Positions 42,942 to 55,306 of a stretch of 64,000 nt of DNA are shown here, one piece after another. Both the position numbers and the translations under genes were made by a program. Source of the DNA: Nannocystales bacterium (GTDB taxonomy: Bacteria > Myxococcota_A > Polyangia > Nannocystales > Nannocystaceae); the NCBI GenBank assembly GCA_050633305.1, contig JBOEGF010000024.1, forward strand, positions 352,001 through 416,000, read 5' to 3'. Every line of letters begins with the position of its first letter. Positions within the stretch are counted from its first letter, which is position 1. Below the pieces are notes generated by a model that saw nothing but the letters and a program-made list of their open reading frames with translations, was not told the origin of the DNA and did not search any database.

Positions 42942-44372
42942 GTGCAGCTCCCTCTGCGTCCGCGCCCCGCCTTTCTGCTTGGAATGCTCATCGTCGCGGT
43001 CACGGCGTGTGGTGACGATGCGGTGGATGGGGCCGACACCGACGATGTGGCGTCGACCAGCGCCGCCGCCCCCGGGTCCACCGCTCCATCTGGAGTTACG
43101 AGCGAAGGAACCCAAGGCGAGGATACGTCCGGAGGCTCGGGCTCCGACACCAGCGTAGACCCAACGTCGGGCCCGGACAGCGACTCCGACTCTGGTTCTG
43201 AGACCGATGACAGCTCGGACCGACCGCCTTGCGTCGGCACCCACTTTGGCGACGCCCTCGAGTGGATGGTGCCTTATCCCGCCGATGTCGCGGCCAACGG
43301 CTACCACGCTGTGCTCGACATGAACGACGACGGCTTCCCGGACTTCGTTCAGACCGATCAGGAAGCCGGCAGCGGCTCGGCCCAACTGGGCGAGACGCAC
43401 TGGGTCGTGTACTTCGGGTCCGGGTCCGGGTTCTCCGATAGCCCCCAAGATTGGGCACTCCCGTACCCCGCGGACGTGCTCGCCAACGGCTACCACGCCA
43501 TCCTCGACATCGATGGCGACGGGCTGCCCGACTTCGTCCAGACCGATCAAGAAAACGGCAACGGGCCCGACACCCTCGGCATGACTCGTTGGGACGTCTA
43601 CCTCGGCGACGGCGTGGGCTTCGCAGACTCTCCCACGGCCTGGGCTATCCCATACCCCGCCGATGTCCTGTCCAACGGATATCACGCCGTGCTCGACATG
43701 AACGCCGACGGCATCCCCGACTTCGTCCAGACCGATCAAGAAAGCGGAAACGGGGCCAACGAGCTCGGCATTTCCCGGTGGGACGTCTACCTGGGCGGCG
43801 CCTCAGGGTTTGCCGAAGTTGCCGCTGCATGGGCGATCCCGTACCCCGCGGACGTGCTCGCCAACGGCTACCACGCTGTGCTCGACCTCGACGGCGACAG
43901 TTTTGCCGACTTCGTCCAGACCGACCAGGAGAATGGCAATGGCGCCGACGAACTGGGCATGTCGCGATGGGGTCTGCACACCGGGAACGGAGCAGGGTTT
44001 GCCAACGCTGCGCACGGCTGGGCGATCCCATACGCCGCGGACGTGCTAGCCAACGGCCACCACAGCGTTCTGGACATGGACGGACAAGGACCGCCGGACT
44101 TCATCCAGACCGACCAAGAGGGGGGCGTGGGCCCGAATGCGGGGATGGACGCCTGGGTCTTGTACAGCAACGACGGCAGCGGATTCGCCGACGCGTCGCC
44201 GTGGCCGATTCCATATCCTGCGGATGTCTTCGCCAATGGGTATCACGTGGTCATGGACCTGACCGGCGACGGCCTACCCGACTTCGTCCAGACCGACGAC
44301 GAAGCGGGCAACGGCACACCCGACATCGGCACCTCGCACTGGCGCGTATTCCCGGGCGCCTGCGACGAGTAG
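42942..44372 (+). CDS. Lipoprotein with six FG-GAP/VCBS-like repeats (beta-propeller)
   Basis: Lipobox VTAC, S/T/D linker, 6 x PYPADVxANGYHxxLDxxxDGxPDFVQTDQE; start estimated. Confidence 0.85.
   Translation: MQLPLRPRPAFLLGMLIVAVTACGDDAVDGADTDDVASTSAAAPGSTAPSGVTSEGTQGEDTSGGSGSDTSVDPTSGPDSDSDSGSETDDSSDRPPCVGTHFGDALEWMVPYPADVAANGYHAVLDMNDDGFPDFVQTDQEAGSGSAQLGETHWVVYFGSGSGFSDSPQDWALPYPADVLANGYHAILDIDGDGLPDFVQTDQENGNGPDTLGMTRWDVYLGDGVGFADSPTAWAIPYPADVLSNGYHAVLDMNADGIPDFVQTDQESGNGANELGISRWDVYLGGASGFAEVAAAWAIPYPADVLANGYHAVLDLDGDSFADFVQTDQENGNGADELGMSRWGLHTGNGAGFANAAHGWAIPYAADVLANGHHSVLDMDGQGPPDFIQTDQEGGVGPNAGMDAWVLYSNDGSGFADASPWPIPYPADVFANGYHVVMDLTGDGLPDFVQTDDEAGNGTPDIGTSHWRVFPGACDE
43264..44352 (+). 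repeat. Intragenic tandem repeat, six units of about 180-190 bp
   Basis: Recurrent GCCAACGGCTACCACGC and GACTTCGTCCAGACCGA blocks. Confidence 0.85.
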
Positions 44373-44950: not shown

Positions 44951-45316
44951 ATGACGAAACACCTGACCCAGATCCTTGAAGCAGTTGCACTTTCTGCTGG
45001 CCTTGCCCTGACCCCAGCGTGTGACAATGACGACGATGGCGACACCGGCGCAGGCTCCGACTCGGAGACAGCCGGTTCAACCTCCTCGGCTGGATGCCCT
45101 GGGGCGACGTCGAGTTCTGGATGCCCCAGTGGCACCACGACCTCGGGCTGTCCGGGTGCGACCTCGAGCACCGCCGGATGCCCAGGTGCGACGTCGAGCA
45201 CCGCCGGATGCCCAGGTGCGACGTCGAGCACCGCCGGATGCCCGGGGGCGACGTCGAGCACCGCCGGATGCCCAGGTGCCACGGGTTCGTCGTCTGGCAG
45301 CTCTTCGAGTGGCTGA
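44951..45316 (+). CDS. Small exported (lipo)peptide with seven GCP(G/S) repeats
   Basis: Signal ending TPAC; variation among the 30-bp units is synonymous in this frame. Confidence 0.75.
   Translation: MTKHLTQILEAVALSAGLALTPACDNDDDGDTGAGSDSETAGSTSSAGCPGATSSSGCPSGTTTSGCPGATSSTAGCPGATSSTAGCPGATSSTAGCPGATSSTAGCPGATGSSSGSSSSG
45092..45283 (+). repeat. Coding tandem repeat: two 27-bp units, four 30-bp units and a partial unit (GCPGATSSTA)
   Basis: Consensus GGATGCCCAGGTGCGACGTCGAGCACCGCC, head to tail with no spacers. Confidence 0.92.
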
Positions 45317-45591: not shown

Positions 45592-46035
45592 GTGAGACGA
45601 CTTCTCCCGCCTCAGTTGCTCGTGTTGTCGCTGATGACAATGCTTGCGTTGCATTGGCTCGCGCCTGTTGTCGAGTTCGTTCCATGGCCGTGGCGAGCCG
45701 GCGGCGCGCTGCTCATCGCGGGAGGCTTGGGGATGGCGGTCCGGGCAAAGCGGGTATTCCAGGGACTCGGTGCCAACGTGCCGACGTTCAACGACCCCAC
45801 CCATCTCGTGGAGGTGGGGCTCTTCGCTCATTCGCGAAACCCGATGTATCTCGGCTTCGCGGTCGCGCTGTTGGGCGCCGCGACCCTGTTGGGTTCCGCG
45901 AGCGCGTTCGCGGTCATGCTCACGAACACTGTCGTCACCGACGTTTGGTACATCCGCTACGAGGAACAGGCGATGAGAGCCTCTTTCGGCGAGGCGTACG
46001 CCGACTACTGTCGACGGGTCCGCCGGTGGCTCTGA
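45592..46035 (+). CDS. Isoprenylcysteine carboxyl methyltransferase (ICMT/PEMT) family membrane protein
   Basis: LVEVGLFAHSRNPMYLG, EEQAMRASFGEAYADYCRRVRRWL. Confidence 0.9.
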   Translation: MRRLLPPQLLVLSLMTMLALHWLAPVVEFVPWPWRAGGALLIAGGLGMAVRAKRVFQGLGANVPTFNDPTHLVEVGLFAHSRNPMYLGFAVALLGAATLLGSASAFAVMLTNTVVTDVWYIRYEEQAMRASFGEAYADYCRRVRRWL

Positions 46036-46160
46036 GCTGTCGATGGCTCTTCCCTGGACGCCTCGAAGGCACCGCGCTCCCCTGGGGGGGAGGCCGCAAC
46101 TCGGCGTGGGCGCGTGACCTCGGGAGCGCCGGCGCCTTTCCTTGCTAAGGTGGAACGGCG

Positions 46161-47144
46161 ATGCCGCCAACGATCGAAGAGTCCGAGCGCGAGCTCGAGC
46201 GGTTCTCTCGGGGTGTTGGGAGCTCGGTCGCAGTCGAGGCCCTCAGTGCCTCCGAACGGAGAGCCCGGTGGGGCGACTCGGGCCGCAGCGGCAGTGTCAC
46301 CTCTTCGGTGCTGCGCTCAGGTGTTGCCCTCAGCCTGTCGACGGTCCGCTGGGAACGGTCTTGGTCGGTCTCGATCGACCAGCGTCCGGCCGCGCTGAAG
46401 TTCGTCCTCCTTCGAGGGCGAGGTCCACGGCTCACGACGTCGGACGGTGCTGACCTCTCGCTGGACGGAGGCATGCTCCACCTCGGGAGTATCAACCGAC
46501 CGGTCCGCATGACGTTCGCGTTCGAAGCATCGCCGGTGCCTGCGACCCACGAAGAACTCTCGGCGGAGATCGAGCCCAAGCGCCTCTGCGAGCTCTTGGG
46601 ATCGTCGGTCCTGCCGGATCCGGTCGAAGCGCTGCTTGGCAGCGAGCGTGCGTACCCATTTGTTTCGGTTCCGATGGGGCCAGCGTTGTTGCGAACGTTC
46701 GATGACCTGATCGCCAGCGGTACCCGCGGTGCGACCCGAATGCTGCACCAGGAGGCAGTGGGGCTCGAGCTTGTCGCGGCGGCGCTTGATCGAATCGAGG
46801 AGAGCGCGCGCGTCGCGTCTCACTTGTCCCCGCATCATCAGGAGTGCCTGGAGAACGCCCGAACGCGATTGCTGGCGCAGATGGAAGACCCGCCGTCACT
46901 GGCCGAACTCGCTCGCGCTGTTGGACTGAACGAGTTCAAACTCAAGGCTGGGTTTCGGGCTCTGTTTGGCCAGCCTGTGTTCGCCTACCTGCGGGACCAA
47001 CGCATGCAAAAGGCCCGGGAGTTGCTCAGCGGCCGTCGTCATTCGGTGGCCGAGGTGGCCTTGATGGTTGGCTACCGCAACCCGAGCAAGTTTGCGGCGG
47101 CATTCCGAAAGCGGTTCGGCATCCGTCCCTCCGCGCTCAACTGA
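46161..47144 (+). CDS. AraC family transcriptional regulator (PchR-like)
   Basis: PPSLAELARAVGLNEFKLKAGFRALFG, VAEVALMVGYRNPSKFAAAFRKRFG. Confidence 0.92.
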   Translation: MPPTIEESERELERFSRGVGSSVAVEALSASERRARWGDSGRSGSVTSSVLRSGVALSLSTVRWERSWSVSIDQRPAALKFVLLRGRGPRLTTSDGADLSLDGGMLHLGSINRPVRMTFAFEASPVPATHEELSAEIEPKRLCELLGSSVLPDPVEALLGSERAYPFVSVPMGPALLRTFDDLIASGTRGATRMLHQEAVGLELVAAALDRIEESARVASHLSPHHQECLENARTRLLAQMEDPPSLAELARAVGLNEFKLKAGFRALFGQPVFAYLRDQRMQKARELLSGRRHSVAEVALMVGYRNPSKFAAAFRKRFGIRPSALN

Positions 47145-47246
47145 CCGTTCGGCCCCGCGGGCGAAATGCTCCGGTTCGGAGCCAATGTGCTCCCGCGTGG
47201 AGCGGCGCGTCGCTGCGCGCTGTCGCTACGCTGCATGCCGGACGAC

Positions 47247-48245
47247 ATGAGAGCCGTTGTGTTTCACAAGTATGGGCCGCCGGAGGTCCTCGCGGTCGAG
47301 GAGGTCGCGAAGCCCACTCCGAAGGCCGATGAGATCCTCATCAGGGTGCACGCTTCAACGGTGTCGGCGGAGGACCCGAAGATGAGGAGCTTCAACCACC
47401 CGCCGATGCTGTGGATCCCGATCGCGGTGTTGTTCGGGTATCCGCGTCCACGGACGCAGGTGCTTGGAATGGAGCTGTCGGGAACGGTCGAGGCCGTGGG
47501 GCGCGCGGTCACACGCTTCCAGGTCGGTGACGCGGTCTTCGGGTACACGGGGGTCGGCCTGAGGGCGCATGCCGAGTATCGCTGCCTCCCGGAGAACAGC
47601 GTCCTGACCCGGAAGCCAGACTCGGTGAGCTTCACGGATGCCGCGGCGGTTCCGAACAGCGCGCTGACTGCCCTGGTCTATCTCCGCAACATGGGGAAAC
47701 TGGTACGAGGCGAGCGCGTCCTCATCTACGGTGCCTCGGGCGCCGTGGGCTCGGCGGCGGTGCAGATCGCGAAGTCTCTCGGCGCTGACGTCACCGGCGT
47801 GTGCAGCACCCGGAACGTGCAACTCGTGCGTTCCCTGGGAGCCGATCATGTTGTCGACTATACGTGTGAGCGGTTCACGGATGGCGGACGGGTGTACGAC
47901 GTCGTATTCGACACGATCGGGAAAACCAGCTTCGGAGACGTACGGTCAGTGCTCGACGATGAGGGCCGATATCTCGTCACCGTGTTTGGGGTTCTCGACC
48001 TCCTGAGGATGCTGTGGACACGGCTTCGTGGCGGCCCCCGGGTCCTCGGCGGAGCCTCCAACCTCTACTGGAAGCGCGACGACCTCGAGCTCCTCGTGGA
48101 CCTGATGGCTGAAGGCTCGTTCCGGGCGGTGGTCGACCGCTGCTACCCGATGACCGCAGCGATCGAGGCCCACCGGTACGTCGAGACGGGGCGGAAGCGG
48201 GGCAACGTGGTGCTTCAGATCAGGCCTGAGGACGCCGGCGGCTGA
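47247..48245 (+). CDS. NAD(P)-dependent MDR-family oxidoreductase (quinone oxidoreductase/alcohol dehydrogenase-like)
   Basis: YGPPEVL, LGMELSG, VLIYGASGAVG, AHRYVETGRKRGNVV. Confidence 0.92.
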   Translation: MRAVVFHKYGPPEVLAVEEVAKPTPKADEILIRVHASTVSAEDPKMRSFNHPPMLWIPIAVLFGYPRPRTQVLGMELSGTVEAVGRAVTRFQVGDAVFGYTGVGLRAHAEYRCLPENSVLTRKPDSVSFTDAAAVPNSALTALVYLRNMGKLVRGERVLIYGASGAVGSAAVQIAKSLGADVTGVCSTRNVQLVRSLGADHVVDYTCERFTDGGRVYDVVFDTIGKTSFGDVRSVLDDEGRYLVTVFGVLDLLRMLWTRLRGGPRVLGGASNLYWKRDDLELLVDLMAEGSFRAVVDRCYPMTAAIEAHRYVETGRKRGNVVLQIRPEDAGG

Positions 48246-48277: not shown

Positions 48278-48796
48278 TCAGTAGGGCCGCTTCGGAACTT
48301 CTTCGTCGACGCGGGCGCGGAACCGGCCCACGGCATCGATCGCGTCCGCGGCCGCATAGTCGAGGGAGAGATGCTGCGTGAGCTCGGGGACGAGCCAGGC
48401 CATCGTCGTGGGGACCGCGTCGAACACTTTGTGCTGGTACGGCTGCCTGGCGAGCATGGTCAGGCCTGAAACGATGCTTCGCACCGCGGCCGCGCGGAAG
48501 CCGGTGCCCTCGAAGGCCACACCGGACCCACGGATGTAGTCCGCGGTTCCAAGGAAGTTGGCGATCGCTGCGCGCGCGTCGTTCTCGGGGGCAGGGGCGT
48601 TCGCCTCGATGATCGTCAGGAGCCCGATCCCCTCGGACCGGCTCCTTCCAAACTCGGCGCAGTGCTTCTGCAGCTCGTCCGCACCCTCCATCGTGGTGCG
48701 CACCCGCCAGCAGCAGATGAACAGGTCCCGCCAGTAGCCGAGCGCGAAGTCGGGGGTCGCCTGCACGCACGCTGGCTCTGTCACGAAACCGTGCAT
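48278..48796 (-). CDS. Myxobacterial STAS/SEC14 (SpoIIAA-like) hypothetical protein
   Basis: Alpha/beta pattern with EGTGFRAAAVRSIVSGL...KVF....AWL typical of this myxobacterial family; recognised by eye. Confidence 0.6.
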   Translation of the reverse strand: MHGFVTEPACVQATPDFALGYWRDLFICCWRVRTTMEGADELQKHCAEFGRSRSEGIGLLTIIEANAPAPENDARAAIANFLGTADYIRGSGVAFEGTGFRAAAVRSIVSGLTMLARQPYQHKVFDAVPTTMAWLVPELTQHLSLDYAAADAIDAVGRFRARVDEEVPKRPY

Positions 48797-48842
48797 CAGC
48801 CGGAACCGTATCACTAGCTAGAGGCCACGGTACACTGTTCAC

Positions 48843-51086
48843 GTGGTCATTCCTGGAACTTCCTGTCGACCGCTCATCCTGAATCCGGACGCTGTCGAGG
48901 ACGCGAAACGGCTCGCCGAGCTTCAGGCACGCCCTGAGGTCCAGACCTGCGATGAGCTTCAAACGCAGCTGGAGGGGCTTGCCGTCTGTCGCTCCCCGAA
49001 AGCTCGGTTGGACCGAGATGCACCGGGGCTGCAGAAGGCGGTTGCGGCACTCGCGGCCTCACCGGTCTACCAAGCGAGGCGTTGGGTCTACTACCCGTGG
49101 CGGAACCGACTCGTCCACGTGCTTGGCCCGGACGAATTCGCGGAGCTTCGCTCGAACCGCAACCTCTTCAAGCTCGACCCCCAGCAGCAGCGGGACCTTC
49201 GCACGAAGACCGTCGGCATCGTCGGGCTGTCGGTGGGGCGCGCGAGTGCAGCGACGATGGCTCTGGAGGGGCTCGCGGGCTGCTATCGGCTGGCGGACTT
49301 CGACACGCTGGAGCTCTCCAATCTCAACCGGCTTCGGTGTTCTGTCGCCGACCTGGGGATCAACAAGGCGGTTCTTGCCGCCCGGGAACTCTACGAACTC
49401 GACCCGTACTTGGACGTCGAGGTCTACGAGGATGGCATCACCGAGGGCAACATCGAGGACTTCCTCGGCGGGCTCGACCTGCTCGTGGAGGAGTGTGACG
49501 AGCTGTCCATGAAGGTCCTGCTTCGAGAGCGCTGCCGGGACCTGCGGATCCCGGTCATCATGGAGACGAGCGATCGAGGCATGGTCGACGTCGAGCGGTT
49601 CGACCTGGAGCCGACCCGACCCCTTCTTCACGGGCTGATGGACGACGTCGCGGCGGCCTCACTCAAGGGGCTCTCCGACAAAGAAAAGGTACCTTTCGCA
49701 CTGCGGGTCCTCGGGGCGACGGATATGTCGGTTGACCTCGCAGCGTCACTGGTCGAGGTCGGGGAGTCGATCACGGGATGGCCTCAGCTCGCATCCGCGG
49801 TGGCAGTGGGCGGAGGCATCGTTGGGGACTTTGGCAGGCGAATCCTGCTCGACCAGCATCGCGCGTCGGGGCGGTTCTACGTCGACCTCGATGCGTTGCT
49901 GCACCCCGACCGCGCCGTGGCTATCGAGGTCCCGGAGTCACCGACATCCGACGAGCCTGCAGCGACCGAGGCTCTTTCTCCGCTGCGCAAGCGCGCCGCA
50001 CCGACGCAGCCGGTGACGGAGTCCGAGGTTCGGCAGCTCGTCGAGTACGGGATCCGTGCGCCCTCGGGAGGAAACAACCAGGGATGGAGCTTCCGGTTCG
50101 ACGGGAGCGCGCTGGAGTGCGCGATCGATCCCTCTCGCGTGCAAGACTTTCTGGAGTTCAACCGAACAGGCTCGACCCTGTCGCTCGGTGCGGCTGTCGA
50201 GAACATCGTGCTGGCCGCCGGCATGATGTCTGTCGAGGCGAACGTCGACTTCCAGCCCGACGGTGCGGATTCCGACGTCGTGTGCCGAATCCATCTGAGC
50301 AACGCGACGGACGTCGAGGCCGACCCTCTATCTCGATGGATCGACGAGCGTTGTACGTCCCGGGCTCGTGGGAACGGGCGGCGACTCGAACCAGACCACG
50401 CCGCGGCCATCGAGGCCGCGGTGCCGGCCCGTCAAGCTCGCCTGCAGCTCCTGCGGACGGACGAGGAGTTGGAAGCGGTAGGGGCGATCATGGGCACGAA
50501 CGACCGTGTGGCCATGCAGCACGAGGCGGTCCACAAGGAGTTGATGGGCGACGTTCGTTGGACCCAGCGTGAACTCGACACCCGCCGCGATGGCCTGGAT
50601 CTGAGCACCTTCGACATGAAGCCGTTCGAGAGAGCCGCGATGCGGGTACTGACGCGGTGGCCCGTGATGGAGAAGCTACGGGCCGGAAATCGGGGCATGA
50701 CCCTCGAGACCGCCACACGGCGCTCGGTCGCAGCATCCGCCGCCGTTGGCCTGTTGTCGGTGAAGGGTAGCGACGCCAAGGCCTACTTCGAGGGGGGCCG
50801 GGCCGCGCAGCGGATGTGGCTGGAGGTGACTCGGCTGGGCATCGCGATGCAGCCGATGACGGTCTTCCCCGCTCTGCTCGCGCGCCTGCGACGTGGGGGT
50901 GGTGCCGGGTTTGCCCAATGGCACAAAGCTCGGCTCACCGAACTCGGGGCGCGTTTCGACCGTCTGTACCCGCGGCCCTCGGACAGCGCGGACATCATGC
51001 TGTTCCGACTCGCCTACGCCCCCCTGGAGCAGACCCGAAGCGTGCGTCGGCGCATCGACGACGTCTTCCGCTACGAGCCACAGTGA
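48843..51086 (+). CDS. ThiF/E1-like adenylyltransferase fused to a nitroreductase domain (Rv1355c/OxzB-like)
   Basis: WVYYPWR, RSNRN, VGIVGLSVG, LADFDTLELSNLNR, EECD, WPQLAS; RAPSGGNNQGW and GGRAAQRMWL nitroreductase motifs. Confidence 0.9.
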   Translation: MVIPGTSCRPLILNPDAVEDAKRLAELQARPEVQTCDELQTQLEGLAVCRSPKARLDRDAPGLQKAVAALAASPVYQARRWVYYPWRNRLVHVLGPDEFAELRSNRNLFKLDPQQQRDLRTKTVGIVGLSVGRASAATMALEGLAGCYRLADFDTLELSNLNRLRCSVADLGINKAVLAARELYELDPYLDVEVYEDGITEGNIEDFLGGLDLLVEECDELSMKVLLRERCRDLRIPVIMETSDRGMVDVERFDLEPTRPLLHGLMDDVAAASLKGLSDKEKVPFALRVLGATDMSVDLAASLVEVGESITGWPQLASAVAVGGGIVGDFGRRILLDQHRASGRFYVDLDALLHPDRAVAIEVPESPTSDEPAATEALSPLRKRAAPTQPVTESEVRQLVEYGIRAPSGGNNQGWSFRFDGSALECAIDPSRVQDFLEFNRTGSTLSLGAAVENIVLAAGMMSVEANVDFQPDGADSDVVCRIHLSNATDVEADPLSRWIDERCTSRARGNGRRLEPDHAAAIEAAVPARQARLQLLRTDEELEAVGAIMGTNDRVAMQHEAVHKELMGDVRWTQRELDTRRDGLDLSTFDMKPFERAAMRVLTRWPVMEKLRAGNRGMTLETATRRSVAASAAVGLLSVKGSDAKAYFEGGRAAQRMWLEVTRLGIAMQPMTVFPALLARLRRGGGAGFAQWHKARLTELGARFDRLYPRPSDSADIMLFRLAYAPLEQTRSVRRRIDDVFRYEPQ

Positions 51087-51095
51087 GCCGAGGGC

Positions 51096-52655
51096 TCAGC
51101 TCTTGGCTCGGCGGCCCAGCTCTGCCATGCACGCATGGTGGTCCGGGAGCGTGGCCAAGAGGTGTTTCGTTCGCATTTGCACCTTCTCGATCGCCGAGTC
51201 TCCCACCGTGACGTGCTCGAGGATCGGGTAGGGGTTCTTTGGGATCCGTCCCATGCCGTCGAGGATGCAGGCGTAGCTCTGTCCCTTGAACACGGTGAAC
51301 TTGAGGCCGTCGAGGACCGGGAGGCAGACGTCAAACAGCTCCAACTTCTGTTGGAGGGAGTCTGGGACCTCGGTCTCGTTCGCGACCAACTTCCAAAACG
51401 AGGTGTCCCGGCGAGGCGAGGCCACGTAGTGCATCACGATGAAGTCGCGGAGCTCCAGGTACACGTCCTCCACCATGGCGTTGTACTTCCGCCGCAGGGG
51501 GGCCTCCATGTCGACGGTGGGAAACACCGGAAGCAGGGCGCCCAGCTGGTACTCGGTCAGGAAGATCCCCGTGGACTCGAGAGGCTCCAGGAAACAACTC
51601 GAGAGCCCGATCGCGATGCAGTTCTTGACCCACGGCGCAGGGTTGCGACCGATCCTCATCTGCAGATGGCGTGCGGGTTTGCCTTCGGCACGCTCTCCGA
51701 GGAAGGTTCGTAGCTCCGTTTCGGCCTGGTCCTTGGAAATGCAGTCATCCGAGTAGACGTAGCCACACCCGCTGCGGTTCATCAGCGGGACATCCCAGAC
51801 CCAGCCGTGCCCGATCGCGGTGGATGTTGTGTAGGGACGAAGGCTTCCGTCCTTGGGATCATCGCTGGTCTGGATCGCAACCGCTGCGTTGCACTTGAGC
51901 GAAGCGTGGTCGCTCAAGAAACGCTCGCCCAAGGCTTCGTTGATGATGCGGCCTCGGAACCCAGAGCAGTCGAAGAACAGTTCGCCTTCCAGGCGGCGGC
52001 CAGACTCCAAGGCGAGGCTGTCGACAAATCCGCGTTCGTCCAACTCGACATCGACCACGGTGTCGACCACGTGCTGAACACCCCGCGACTTCGCGGTCTC
52101 GCGCAGGACATCGGCGAGCAGTCCGGCGTCGACATGGTAGGCAGACCGAATCTCGTGCTCTGGGCTGTCCACGCGCCGAGGAGCCTTCATCGCGTCGCAC
52201 AGCGCCGCGGTGGGGTGGCACTCGTACGTCATCGGAAGACTGGTGCGACCCTCCAGACGTCGCTTGAGCCACTGGTGGTACATCGCAAAGCCGTGGTCGA
52301 CGACGGGGAAGTACGGCTTCTCGTACGGGGACAGCTGCGGGTCGGGCCGATCTCCGAACGGGTGGTAGAAGCCATCGAGAGGCCGGTCAGCGCTCATCCA
52401 CCCGTTGAACCGAATCGCGGTTTTGTAGGTTGCCGAGCAGCGGGGCATCCAGACGTCTTCCTCGAGCCCGAGGAACTCCAGCGTCGTTCGTAGCGTGGGG
52501 ATCGTGGCCTCACCGACGCCGACGGTCGGGACGTCGCGCGACTCCACGAGCGTGATGCGGGTCTCCGGGCTGAGGGCGCGGTTGAGGTACGCCGCGGTCA
52601 TCCACCCCGCCGTTCCGCCACCCAGGATGACAATCGATTCGACCTTCTTACCCAT
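51096..52655 (-). CDS. Flavin-dependent halogenase, tryptophan halogenase family
   Basis: GGGTAG FAD motif, VGVGEATIP, catalytic-Lys region ATYKTAIRF, WVWDVP (WxWxIP), FLEPLESTG. Confidence 0.92.
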   Translation of the reverse strand: MGKKVESIVILGGGTAGWMTAAYLNRALSPETRITLVESRDVPTVGVGEATIPTLRTTLEFLGLEEDVWMPRCSATYKTAIRFNGWMSADRPLDGFYHPFGDRPDPQLSPYEKPYFPVVDHGFAMYHQWLKRRLEGRTSLPMTYECHPTAALCDAMKAPRRVDSPEHEIRSAYHVDAGLLADVLRETAKSRGVQHVVDTVVDVELDERGFVDSLALESGRRLEGELFFDCSGFRGRIINEALGERFLSDHASLKCNAAVAIQTSDDPKDGSLRPYTTSTAIGHGWVWDVPLMNRSGCGYVYSDDCISKDQAETELRTFLGERAEGKPARHLQMRIGRNPAPWVKNCIAIGLSSCFLEPLESTGIFLTEYQLGALLPVFPTVDMEAPLRRKYNAMVEDVYLELRDFIVMHYVASPRRDTSFWKLVANETEVPDSLQQKLELFDVCLPVLDGLKFTVFKGQSYACILDGMGRIPKNPYPILEHVTVGDSAIEKVQMRTKHLLATLPDHHACMAELGRRAKS

Positions 52656-54561
52656 CGTGTTCTTCCTCTGCGTCGAGCTCATGCACCATCGGGTGCGGGC
52701 GTGTGACGAACTCCCGAATCCGCTCGATCAGGTCGGGCCCGTGAGACGCGTTGAGTACGGTCATCCACGCGTCGCCCAAAGATACGACGCGGTCGATCTC
52801 GAGGAGAAGCGCTTCGTCCTCCCGGGCAAAGTGGACGAAGTGGGAGCGCCCAAGTCCTGAGAACCACTGGCATGCGTGCGCCAGGAGTGCCGCGAACGCG
52901 CCAGGGTGGAGTGCCCCGTCGAGGGAGTAGAGCCGGCACGAATCTGTGAGGCGAAACAGATGGAGCCCCTCTTCGGTCGCGTCCAGAATCGACAGGGCGC
53001 TCGCTTCGCCGTCCACTTCGGCGACCATCACCACGCGCCGTCGCTCGAGCCCACCGGCGCTCCAATGCCCGTCACGGTCCGCCGGTTGCGTGAGTGTGTC
53101 CAGGCCCAGCGCGCTGATGTAGGGGCGGGTGAAGTCGCGGGTGAAGGCGGCGGTGGCTTTGGGGAGGTCGGAGTCCACAAGCTCTCGCACCAAGACTCCG
53201 TCCGGTGCCGTCACCTGCACGTCGGTGGGCACCTCGTACGCCGAGAACTCCGTGACGGATGCCTCGCCGGAGGACACAAACTCCGCCGGAACGTCGACAT
53301 GCACCTTGCGGCTCCAGGTCGCGGACTTCTGGACGTAGGTGACCAGCCACTGCGCACCGTGCTCGCGCACGTACTCGTAGGCGTGACGGTAGGCCTCGTA
53401 GAGCGCGCCTGCCCCCACTTCTCCGACGCCCTGTGGTTGGCGGCGACGGCTCACGTGATAGAGCAGCCAGGCACCCGGCCACTGCTGCAGCTGATGCATG
53501 GTGACGTCCGTATCACCGCTGACGATGTGCGTGCCCACCGGCGCCGCATTGCTGAGCTTTGCGTTCGCGTGGACGAAAGGCCCGCGCAGCTTTGCGAAGT
53601 CGGCAGTGGTTTTTCCCGAGAGCTGGAAGTAACCAGACTCGTCGTAGATCGACCAGAGGGTCTCCGGCGTTGCGGTTCCGGCAGCGCTCCGCGCGTAGAG
53701 GATCCTGCTGATGTCCTTGGCAAAGGAGTCCGGCGCTGAGGTCAGCTCGACGCCGACGAGCCGGAGCTCGGGTGTCTGAGTGGGCGAGACGTGTCGCACC
53801 ACGCAATCGACCTGCGAAGACCTTCCGCGCTCGGCTCCCACCGCCAGTCTCAACTCGAGACCTGGCCAAACCACATTTTGGGTCTGTGAGGCGTAAAAGG
53901 AGAGCCCTGCGACGGAGACGTCGTTGGCGGTTCCGCGAACCTTGACCCCAGCCAGCTCTGGGTGGGTACCCGTGACCGAAACCCGGGGATCGAGTCGCAC
54001 TCGCCGGTGACGGCGTCGGCGAACTCGGTCGAGGAACGGTGGGAGTCGTCCCGGATTGGCTGCCGGGATCCGCACCGTAGAGTACTCAAACTCTCGGTCC
54101 ACGGTCTGTTGCTGTCCCAAGGCATCGAGGGCCTCTCGGGGGTCGTCCCACAGACAGGACAAGAGTCGGCGGATGCGAACCGGTTCCGAGATCCGCTCCG
54201 TCGTGTCGGTCGTGCCGTTTGCGTGGCCGGGTCCGGTGCGTCCCGCGGCGGTGCGCGACAGACGGTATTCCCATTCTGCGAGGCGCTGCGAGCCGTCCGA
54301 GGTCGCGGCCTCGAACAGGACCCCCCGGGGTGCTTGCGGTGCCGTCGCGACACTTCGGTGGACCAGAAGGCTGCCTAGACCGACGTGTTCGAGGTTGGCG
54401 AGGAGAACGTCAGCGTTGCTGTAGTCCTCGGTCAGCTCGACGAGGAGACCTCCCGCCTTCGCTCGTCTTGCCCTCAGCCTAACCGCGCGTCCCGTCGCGG
54501 GCTCTTCAAAGTCGACGACCCATTTTTGTTTCGATTGGACCGTAGGAATTCCTTTTATCAC
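52648..54561 (-). CDS. PilZ domain protein with a C-terminal putative GNAT-like/acyltransferase region
   Basis: RxxxR (RRRRHRR) and DxSxxG (DVSVAG); the fold of the C-terminal ~350 aa alpha/beta region is inferred; 8-bp overlap with the halogenase start. Confidence 0.7.
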   Translation of the reverse strand: MIKGIPTVQSKQKWVVDFEEPATGRAVRLRARRAKAGGLLVELTEDYSNADVLLANLEHVGLGSLLVHRSVATAPQAPRGVLFEAATSDGSQRLAEWEYRLSRTAAGRTGPGHANGTTDTTERISEPVRIRRLLSCLWDDPREALDALGQQQTVDREFEYSTVRIPAANPGRLPPFLDRVRRRRHRRVRLDPRVSVTGTHPELAGVKVRGTANDVSVAGLSFYASQTQNVVWPGLELRLAVGAERGRSSQVDCVVRHVSPTQTPELRLVGVELTSAPDSFAKDISRILYARSAAGTATPETLWSIYDESGYFQLSGKTTADFAKLRGPFVHANAKLSNAAPVGTHIVSGDTDVTMHQLQQWPGAWLLYHVSRRRQPQGVGEVGAGALYEAYRHAYEYVREHGAQWLVTYVQKSATWSRKVHVDVPAEFVSSGEASVTEFSAYEVPTDVQVTAPDGVLVRELVDSDLPKATAAFTRDFTRPYISALGLDTLTQPADRDGHWSAGGLERRRVVMVAEVDGEASALSILDATEEGLHLFRLTDSCRLYSLDGALHPGAFAALLAHACQWFSGLGRSHFVHFAREDEALLLEIDRVVSLGDAWMTVLNASHGPDLIERIREFVTRPHPMVHELDAEEEHDG

Positions 54562-54657
54562 GACCGTCGTAAAACGACCTCGGTCTGGACCGCATTCCCG
54601 CAGTCCCTTCGTAGCTCATGCACGGCTTAGCCTGCATGGCCGAGGTGTCAAGGCGAG

Positions 54658-55230
54658 CTACCAGCCGCCCCAACCGTGGTTCATGTCGTCCCAGTCCCAA
54701 CAGACCAAGCCGGCGTAGGTGCCTGAGACGTTCCCCGTTGCCAGGTCGAGCTTCCCGCGGATGTGGATGAAGCCAGCGCCGCCTTCGAGGATCGTCAGCA
54801 ACGTGCTGAAGCGACCCGAGCCGGTGTCACCCGGAGGGCTCAGGTTCATCGAGCCGGTGTCGACACCGACGAACTCTCCATAGGTGGAATCGATGACGCT
54901 TGTCCCGGTGAAGAAGTTGACGAACGGAACGCGCGGGTCGTTCGTCGACATGAGTTGGTCCATCTCCAGGGCGTACTGTCCATTGAGGACACCGGAGAGT
55001 TCACCTGCGGTGCACAGGCCAACATCGGACTCGCACGGCGGAACAGGGACAGACATGGCACCGAACCAGCCGAACGCAGGAATGCAGATCATCTGATCCA
55101 TGTCCTGCTGCGGGTACGAGGCTGCCTCCTCCATCTGGCTTGAGACATGTCCGGCTTCTGCCTCTGCGGTAGGGGCGAGCCAGAGACCTGCGGCGAGTGC
55201 GAGCGGGGTGAGTTTTTTAATACCTTCCAT
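54658..55230 (-). CDS. Secreted beta-rich hypothetical protein (possible dirigent/allene-oxide-cyclase-like barrel)
   Basis: Signal peptide ending AEA, CESDVGLCTAG, Gly-rich beta strands, terminal Cys. Confidence 0.6.
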   Translation of the reverse strand: MEGIKKLTPLALAAGLWLAPTAEAEAGHVSSQMEEAASYPQQDMDQMICIPAFGWFGAMSVPVPPCESDVGLCTAGELSGVLNGQYALEMDQLMSTNDPRVPFVNFFTGTSVIDSTYGEFVGVDTGSMNLSPPGDTGSGRFSTLLTILEGGAGFIHIRGKLDLATGNVSGTYAGLVCWDWDDMNHGWGGW

Positions 55231-55289
55231 AGCTACCTTTCCGGAGGCCCGCGATGCTCGCGCAGCCCGCAGAATCGGTCTACGGGTCG

Positions 55290-55306
55290 GTTGCCACATT
55301 GGCAAC
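55290..55306. promoter_or_regulatory. Palindromic putative operator upstream of the 55230 gene
   Basis: GTTGCCA-CAT-TGGCAAC next to an AT-rich patch (55307-55340). Confidence 0.5.

Follow-up and report, generated by a model that had tools for sequence, protein, structure and literature searches.

A myxobacterial gene cluster that may direct a halogenated oxazolone under c-di-GMP control

What does a compact set of five genes in a Nannocystales bacterium make, and what controls its output? The genes lie in a 64,000-nucleotide stretch of contig JBOEGF010000024.1 (assembly GCA_050633305.1, positions 352,001 to 416,000), hereafter the window, and encode a ThiF–nitroreductase fusion, a flavin-dependent halogenase, a PilZ protein with an acyltransferase-like C-terminus, a secreted barrel protein and a STAS-like protein. 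A first-pass annotation made from the sequence alone proposed that they yield a halogenated oxazolone governed by cyclic diguanylate (c-di-GMP). The reading favoured here, with modest confidence, is that the product is a halogenated oxazolone of an N-acyl amino acid, a halo-tryptazolone being the likeliest, and that its output is gated by c-di-GMP; that the three enzymes share one halogenating pathway of some kind is held with good confidence.

The ThiF–nitroreductase protein carries both Pfam domains (PF00899 and PF00881) and scores 759 bits over residues 6-741 against the Rv1355c-family model NF005901 (cut-off 476), while its score on NF011424 is 233 bits, under the cut-off of 1170. The proposal of an oxazolone-type enzyme stands on the first of these scores, and the assignment to OxzB gives way to TrzS, the family of Rv1355c. 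In 2025, Rv1355c was named TrzS and Rv1356c TrzA in a pathway of mycolic-acid bacteria: TrzA attaches an acyl group to L-Trp, after which TrzS uses ATP to close the ring and O2 to desaturate it, yielding an N-acyl tryptazolone (PMC12856293). The motifs GLSVG (128), DFDTLELSNLNR (152), EECD (216-219) and APSGGNNQGW (406), together with R503, R555 and Q670, align with actinobacterial homologues, and D219, R555 and Q670, at similar spacing, are the probable equivalents of D217, the catalytic Asp in the adenylation motif of TrzS, and of its FMN-site residues R540 and Q651. By homology to TrzS, the ThiF domain would adenylate the carboxylate and close the oxazolone, and the FMN domain would desaturate it with O2.

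The cluster shares with TrzA/TrzS the fusion of ThiF to an FMN-dependent oxidase, an adjacent gene of acyltransferase fold and a link to c-di-GMP, which takes the form of neighbouring turnover genes in TrzAS and of a fused PilZ domain here (PMC12856293). It differs in that the partner is a non-homologous PilZ-tandem-GNAT protein, a halogenase, secreted barrel and STAS-like gene are added, the genes are split between the two strands, and the host, a myxobacterium, has a TrzS that falls outside the actinobacterial clade. The OxzA/OxzB pathway to tyrazolone and phenazolone has the acylate-cyclise-desaturate logic and the ThiF–nitroreductase didomain in common with the window, although the subfamily differs, and the available text of that paper contains none of the terms 'halogen', 'PilZ', 'myxo' or 'di-GMP' (bioRxiv 10.1101/2020.06.11.147165). 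Almazolone is an algal oxazolone of the Trp type (bioRxiv 10.1101/2020.06.11.147165). The cluster would work like TrzAS and OxzAB, yet it lacks two of their defining features, a TrzA-type single-GNAT partner and one co-directional operon.

Acylation, the step before cyclisation, would fall to the PilZ-tandem-GNAT protein. Its PilZ domain (PF07238, residues 182-289) retains both c-di-GMP motifs, RRRHR (RxxxR) at 182 and DVSVAG (DxSxxG) at 214, as do 92 of 121 full-length homologues. The family profile matches YcgR, Alg44 and VCA0042; the YcgR match points to a degenerate N-terminal domain, and a single PilZ domain passes Pfam. Residues 301-637 have no match in Pfam or NCBIfam, and a PDB profile search with the protein matched only PilZ proteins below E 0.01. 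Relatives of this 337-residue region fill 355 clusters at 50% identity. An AlphaFold2 model built from 147 sequences has a predicted local distance difference test (pLDDT) score of 93.3 and a predicted template-modelling (pTM) score of 0.91. Foldseek returned tandem GNATs as the top rows (E 1.7e-10), and VIA aligned 252 residues with the histidine acetyltransferase 9EMD (Z 13.9, root-mean-square deviation 4.2), a histidine N-acetyltransferase that ties with other tandem GNATs as top match. As modelled, the region is two GNAT folds in tandem, which bears out the acyltransferase fold proposed for the PilZ C-terminus. The protein is predicted to be a c-di-GMP-gated N-acyltransferase that replaces TrzA or OxzA: it would acylate an aromatic amino acid, likely Trp, from acyl-CoA, and c-di-GMP bound to PilZ would likely stimulate the reaction. 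The host genome contains 17 GGDEF matches.

A PilZ domain fused to a GNAT is also found in another myxobacterial protein, PixB (MXAN_2604) of Myxococcus xanthus, which binds c-di-GMP and whose transferase c-di-GMP is proposed to boost (PMC8316039). The PixB acetyltransferase is needed for motility and development, and its substrate is not known (PMC8316039). PixB is described with a pair of PilZ domains whose second motif has no Ser and with a single acetyltransferase domain (PMC8316039), whereas the window protein has one PilZ with the full DxSxxG and a tandem-GNAT catalytic part. ThiF is never mentioned in the available text on PixB (PMC8316039).

Genome context fits a replacement of TrzA. 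No match to FeeM or to a TrzA-like profile built from actinobacterial and Bacteroidota loci was found in the host genome, which is 92% complete; with neither OxzA, TrzA nor FeeM found there, the reported absence of a stand-alone OxzA extends from the locus to that genome. Among 400 genomes of the phylum, 23 others have an NF005901 match and 32 have the PilZ-GNAT domain. Rv1355c-family and PilZ-GNAT genes occur together in 14 of the 23, the PilZ-GNAT lying within 8 kb; in two more the genes are at the ends of separate contigs, six have a single GNAT and one has neither. At 36 myxobacterial-type trzS loci, a set chosen partly through PilZ-GNAT hits and including kin that are not independent, a PilZ-tandem-GNAT is present at 19, a single GNAT at 12, neither at five and both at none, the pattern expected if PilZ-GNAT replaces TrzA. 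The single-GNAT count partly used queries from the same loci: the TrzA-like profile or Pfam independently backs L091-L094, L096, L144, L146 and L150 and weakly backs L145, and L147, L148 and L152 were called by same-locus queries alone. In genomes G004, G025, G430 and G273 and at locus L070, PilZ-GNAT takes the place of trzA as the gene immediately upstream of trzS. The two genes run in the same direction in G004, G025, G430, G273 and others, and converge in the window and in contig L153.

A scan with TrzS covered 71 loci, mostly of Bacteroidota and Actinomycetota, and found a TrzA-like neighbour at 59, a PilZ-GNAT at one and a halogenase at none. In the Bacteroidota loci (L001-L066) the TrzA-like match mostly begins immediately after the TrzS match, in the same orientation and frequently straight after the ThiF half, which suggests another gene order or domain arrangement. 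Eight genomes of genus g17 (G456-G463) carry two Rv1355c-family genes in tandem, ~4-6 kb apart, for example at G461:C3:60259-66904.

The halogenase matches Trp_halogenase (PF04820) at 445 bits, and its profile scores are 445 bits to PrnA, the best-scoring solved structure, 433 and 430 to Trp 5- and 6-halogenases and 325 to 6FRL, which we take to be BrvH. Under published motif definitions for variant A flavin-dependent halogenases (GxGxxG, K79, E346 and WxWxIP; PMC5945002) it retains GGGTAG, K78, H98-P-F100, WVWDVP (WxWxIP with I replaced by V) and E360-STG, and it meets the Trp1 (ATIPTL) and Trp2 (HPFGD) motifs. With PrnA and RebH (7-halogenases), PyrH (5-), Thal (6-) and the lid-less BrvH/MibH it shares GxGxxG, a catalytic Lys, a catalytic Glu, WxWx[IV]P and the HxF clamp for indole (PMC8269204, PMC5945002). 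It differs in having neither Trp3 nor Trp4 and in a unique 14-residue insert after HPFG, rich in Pro and aromatic residues, a combination that recalls MibH. The Trp4 lid of free-Trp halogenases (groups A and B) reads YYxxF..EF..FW..N..YY or (Y/H)YHG(L/F)..YS, with Trp3 found in group B (PMC8269204). At this position the window protein reads KFTVFKGQSY, with the PrnA lid deleted and the group-B insert missing.

Because the lid for free Trp is missing and the insert is present, the halogenase may act late, taking N-acyl-Trp or the finished oxazolone as its substrate in preference to free Trp. Such a substrate would fit, its masked amine and carboxylate being the groups that the lid normally grips. 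The open site of BrvH has been likened to that of MibH, which halogenates Trp solely within a larger substrate (PMC5945002). Supply of a halo-amino acid, the role first assigned to the halogenase, is, given the missing lid, only one of two possible orders. The enzyme would chlorinate or brominate the indole ring with the help of a flavin reductase, which is encoded elsewhere in the host genome.

The gene set is syntenic in relatives. A metagenome contig (JGI; L153) has all five genes, the STAS-like, trzS, halogenase, PilZ-GNAT and barrel products being 54, 59, 69, 40 and 56% identical to those of the window, and its halogenase gene is inverted, starting 4 nt after the trzS stop. The four genes other than the halogenase recur in G004, G025 and G273. 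This recurrence is beyond chance. In the window, the halogenase ATG overlaps the PilZ-GNAT stop by 8 nt, an arrangement that reads as translational coupling of the two genes. The halogenase of accession MBV1860271.1 and the PilZ-GNAT of MBV1860272.1 are consecutive entries on one 9,044-bp contig, and other halogenase clusters are tied to PilZ-GNAT or barrel proteins indirectly, by equal longest contigs (29,623; 29,999; 18,312; 10,433). All four 90% clusters of the halogenase clade are linked in this direct or indirect manner to the gene set.

Halogenase-linked genes form a single clade in each of three trees. The halogenase clade (69-95% identity; 15 sequences in four clusters) has support of 100, and the halogenase-linked PilZ-GNATs form one clade (support 99; five linked rows and two of unknown context) that is sister to the halogenase-free G004 and G025; both trees were made by FastTree only. 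In a quick ThiF-domain tree, which kept 57 of 99 rows after Bacteroidota and actinobacterial rows were thinned, the window TrzS pairs with L153 as its sister (99), and the actinobacterial sequences form a clade of their own (100) that does not include it. Since the linked genes form one clade, sister to the halogenase-free G004 and G025, the likely history is a single addition of the halogenase to a cluster of four genes, followed by its retention through inversion. A simple insertion of the halogenase into the genus's own cluster found no support: the window TrzS shares 41% identity with its counterpart in G004, of the same genus, and its closest grouping is with L153 instead.

Other observations weigh against the proposed pathway, and they are set out from here on beside the alternatives. 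Families, folds, motifs and linkage are what the data contain; each activity is predicted from them. The trzS gene is opposite in strand to the genes of the other two enzymes, so the three form no single operon. L153 is the sole independent five-gene contig read directly, L154 being a near-copy. The locus has no sensor kinase, and the host has just 21-29%-identical relatives of the sensor domains encoded at sister loci. Template-modelling (TM) scores of residues 301-637 to solved tandem GNATs are just 0.3-0.45, further top fold matches acylate sugars, lipids or proteins, and the substrate of a GNAT is not readable from its sequence (PMC8316039). Homology between PilZ-GNAT and TrzA was tried and ruled out (hhalign 0.27%, E 0.22).

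The alternative that survives best keeps the same three-enzyme pathway and replaces Trp, the product being a halogenated tyrazolone or phenazolone, or a compound derived from another aromatic amine. Three actinobacterial TrzA/TrzS pairs yielded Trp products only (PMC12856293). The window TrzS falls outside that Trp-proven clade and differs at the conserved DRxRY stretch (DRVAM), and Trp specificity is therefore not simply transferable to it. The halogenase has neither Trp3 nor a group-A or group-B Trp4 lid; halogenases without Trp4 were inactive on free Trp and accepted indole instead (PMC8269204, PMC5945002), and Trp-type halogenases brominated phenol in vitro (PMC8269204). Tyr and Phe, however, were not halogenated (PMC8269204), the HPF indole-stacking motif and ATIPTL are kept, scores to true Trp halogenases exceed that to 6FRL by >100 bits, and the partner enzyme is of the NF005901 rather than the NF011424 type. 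A non-Trp product is on this evidence unlikely.

The accessory proteins bear on the fate of the oxazolone. Neither the STAS-like protein nor the barrel has a Pfam match, and profile searches with both found no solved relative by sequence. The Atlas model of the STAS-like protein (pTM 0.89) has a structural row with PF11964, SpoIIAA-like, at TM 0.73. The protein falls in Myxococcota clusters without a name, has three weaker paralogues elsewhere in the host genome and has homologues adjoining a TrzS or PilZ-GNAT gene at L081, L082, L084, L095, L104, L117 and L153; it is possibly a ligand-binding or regulatory partner. The barrel has eight strands (AlphaFold2 pLDDT 91.8), a hydrophobic N-terminal leader and four invariant Cys. 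VIA matched it to 2Q03 (Z 10.9), PloI4 (10.2) and pyocyanin demethylase (9.7), and the barrels matched at Z 9-11 are DUF3224-like, Diels-Alderase, pyocyanin-demethylase and dirigent ones; several allene-oxide-cyclase/dirigent/DUF3224 members score 10.9-8.2, and outer-membrane barrels are near at 8.7-9.2. Foldseek gave no barrel match under E 0.001, and in the Atlas there was no barrel model and feature matches occurred only below 0.9. An eight-stranded barrel, possibly of the allene-oxide-cyclase/dirigent/DUF3224 type, is predicted, a statement about fold only and not function, and a carrier or tailoring role is possible. Both labels given at first pass are thereby backed by models. Of 72 family genomes, three were found to have the barrel, in each case at a TrzS + PilZ-GNAT locus, and it also occurs in L117, L145, L147 and L153. 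In the weakest step of the proposal, the secreted barrel might carry, protect or convert the labile product once it is outside, whereas inside the cell the STAS-like protein might bind or relay it.

Conversion by the barrel, or hydrolysis, would leave the oxazolone as an activated intermediate only, the end product being an N-acyl-dehydro-halotryptophan, an amide, or a rearranged or dimeric compound. Oxazolones are labile to acid and alcohol (PMC12856293), the barrel is similar in fold to cyclases of small molecules and to a demethylase and tracks trzS loci, and thalassotalic-acid and stieleriacine producers have ThiF and nitroreductase with no oxazolone seen (PMC12479983). Against this, the barrel Z of 9-11 shows fold alone and most trzS + PilZ-GNAT loci have no barrel, and an oxazolone that serves merely as intermediate is slightly less probable again than a non-Trp product. 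The stieleriacine, thalassotalic-acid and kyonggic-acid clusters share with the window an N-acyl amino-acid synthase, ThiF, a nitroreductase and an extra ring-tailoring enzyme (PMC12479983). They differ in being Tyr-based, with split genes, methylation in place of halogenation (the available text uses 'halogen' 0 times) and no PilZ-GNAT (PMC12479983).

The halogenase might instead be a passenger or belong to another pathway, with PilZ-GNAT and TrzS making a non-halogenated oxazolone. Its place as a regular part of the co-occurrence did not hold up: it is a clade-specific addition, absent from the TrzS loci of every other genome examined, all 18 other TrzS + PilZ-GNAT loci fetched from genomes included. 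At E 1e-60 a match turned up in five of the 400 genomes of the phylum and in four of 71 from the family, in no case adjoining trzS, and a close match in 1 of 59 relatives does not adjoin trzS either. Halogenases of 44-50% identity also occur in other settings, such as beside a thiamine-diphosphate (TPP)-dependent enzyme and ketoacyl synthase (KAS) III. Nevertheless, the gene survived an inversion, being coupled to TrzS in L153 and to PilZ-GNAT in the window, each of the four 90% clusters in its clade is linked to the gene set, and a second pairing of the two families exists at L130; a passenger is improbable.

That second pairing (L130:8619-15284; G381:C184) consists of a distant PilZ-GNAT, a 49%-identical halogenase, a P450, an O-methyltransferase and, as signalling gene, a hybrid kinase; the set follows an ABC transporter operon, in a genome with no trzS match. 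At L099, L136 (7393-11870) and L137, halogenases of 44-50% identity come after a TPP-dependent enzyme; KAS III follows the halogenase at L136 and L137, and L137 also has a small STAS-like open reading frame (ORF). A TPP enzyme with KAS III is the logic of carbazole biosynthesis of the neocarazostatin type, and a halo-indole pathway is possible. A halogenase, an aminotransferase and a GRAS-domain protein stand together at L139 (9186-13203).

That the PilZ-GNAT protein is instead a regulator like PixB, modifying a protein or a polymer of the envelope by acetylation while TrzS draws its substrate from an unlinked enzyme, is equally improbable: PixB controls reversals through its GNAT domain, on a substrate not known (PMC8316039), 26 of 45 PilZ-GNAT family loci have no trzS and the fold matches include protein acetyltransferases, but a single-GNAT partner and PilZ-GNAT occur together at 0 of 36 trzS loci, the host genome search found no TrzA or FeeM, and the trzS-less loci bear small-molecule tailoring genes (methyltransferases, B12-radical SAM, AMP ligase, FAD oxidase and P450).

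The product of the favoured halogenated-oxazolone pathway is probably a signal, because sister loci place sensor kinases between the two synthesis genes. The order receiver-kinase, PilZ-tandem-GNAT, hybrid histidine kinase of ~1,000-1,100 aa and trzS is seen at L102, L103, L106-L111, L114, L116 and L118. The N-terminal ~240 aa of the hybrid kinases are 35-52% identical among six tested, with no Pfam hit and almost no predicted transmembrane helix, and are a candidate soluble receptor for the product. Where these sister loci have a kinase, the window carries the barrel and STAS-like genes, as do G004, G025 and G273.

L145 (5260-12875) and L147 encode the barrel, a SpoIIE phosphatase with a membrane domain, a single GNAT, a true STAS protein, TrzS and kinases, by gene content a partner-switching version of the cassette, and at L090 the same membrane domain is fused to a kinase adjoining trzS. 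L083 (5855-13214; G029) has a 253-aa gene between two PilZ-GNAT paralogues, which converge on two further genes: one ThiF-like and divergent, the other of 396 aa with no Pfam hit.

The five ORFs (Table 1) are intact and free of internal stops, with GC of 63-67% that matches the remainder of the window. The tight packing reported at first pass was found at the same places with no gene interrupted, as was the 9-bp gap (51087-51095) between the converging stops of the TrzS and halogenase genes. The likely halogenase start, 52655, gives the same length as database entry P0188. The barrel start given is the likely one, downstream of AAAGG, as is that of the STAS-like gene, whose Atlas entry begins at residue 7 of the ORF. 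In the 11.0-Mb host genome four of the five genes are single-copy, the STAS-like gene having weak paralogues. A promoter and terminator scan of the locus gave a signal no better than chance. No RNA sequencing run was listed for the sequence; one DNA sequencing run contained 47% of the words in short pieces, with no piece spanning the cluster, and was not used as evidence.

Table 1. The five genes of the cluster: predicted product, position in the window, strand, and length with details
STAS/SpoIIAA-like protein	48278..48796	(-)	~172 aa; ORF open to 48814 (178 aa)
TrzS/Rv1355c-family ThiF cyclase + FMN-dependent oxidase fusion, predicted oxazolone synthase	48843..51086	(+)	747 aa
Flavin-dependent halogenase, tryptophan-halogenase type	51096..52655	(-)	519 aa; ORF open to 52682 (528 aa)
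PilZ-tandem-GNAT protein	52648..54561	(-)	637 aa; PilZ 182-289, two GNAT folds (modelled) 301-637
Predicted secreted 8-stranded beta-barrel	54658..55230	(-)	190 aa; ORF open to 55332 (224 aa)

Genes for a PEMT-type methyltransferase, an AraC regulator and a zinc-binding dehydrogenase occupy 45592-48245 (+), ending 32 bp from the STAS-like gene; related loci, L153 and L081 among them, showed none of the three. Further upstream, a 30-bp tandem repeat (45119-45283, +; 4.3 copies, 93%) encodes a Cys-containing 10-residue unit within a small, lipoprotein-like ORF (44951-45316). A 189-bp repeat (43293-44119, +; 4.4 copies) lies inside a 707-aa ORF with Asp-rich motifs, which we take to be FG-GAP-like.

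The combination was described as being without a known pathway, and searches of open-access PMC and bioRxiv, the literature covered, turned up neither a pathway to a halogenated oxazolone nor an oxazolone synthase partnered by a PilZ-GNAT. What bacterial oxazolones do is described as a major unresolved question, for which c-di-GMP has been hinted at via neighbouring genes only (PMC12856293). With a c-di-GMP sensor fused to the predicted first enzyme, regulation might be reduced to a one-protein assay, and the predicted halogenated oxazolone would bear an easy isotope signature. The halogenase clade, with its new lid, may accept N-acylated tryptophan and could be useful in biocatalysis.

A wider reading, put forward tentatively and rather doubtful as it stands, is that the PilZ-tandem-GNAT proteins of the 355 clusters are a family of c-di-GMP-gated signal synthases in myxobacteria and their kin, with tailoring genes that can be exchanged (for an oxazolone synthase, halogenase, P450, methyltransferases or B12-radical SAM) and chemical dialects that are read by linked sensor kinases; the locus would then make the first natural halogenated tryptazolone, its halogenase acting once the molecule is acylated or cyclised, the barrel would carry or mature it, and the product of PixB would be of the same kind. 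More generally, the cluster suggests what kind of small molecule the large, unannotated PilZ-GNAT family might act on, and the analogy perhaps extends to PixB.

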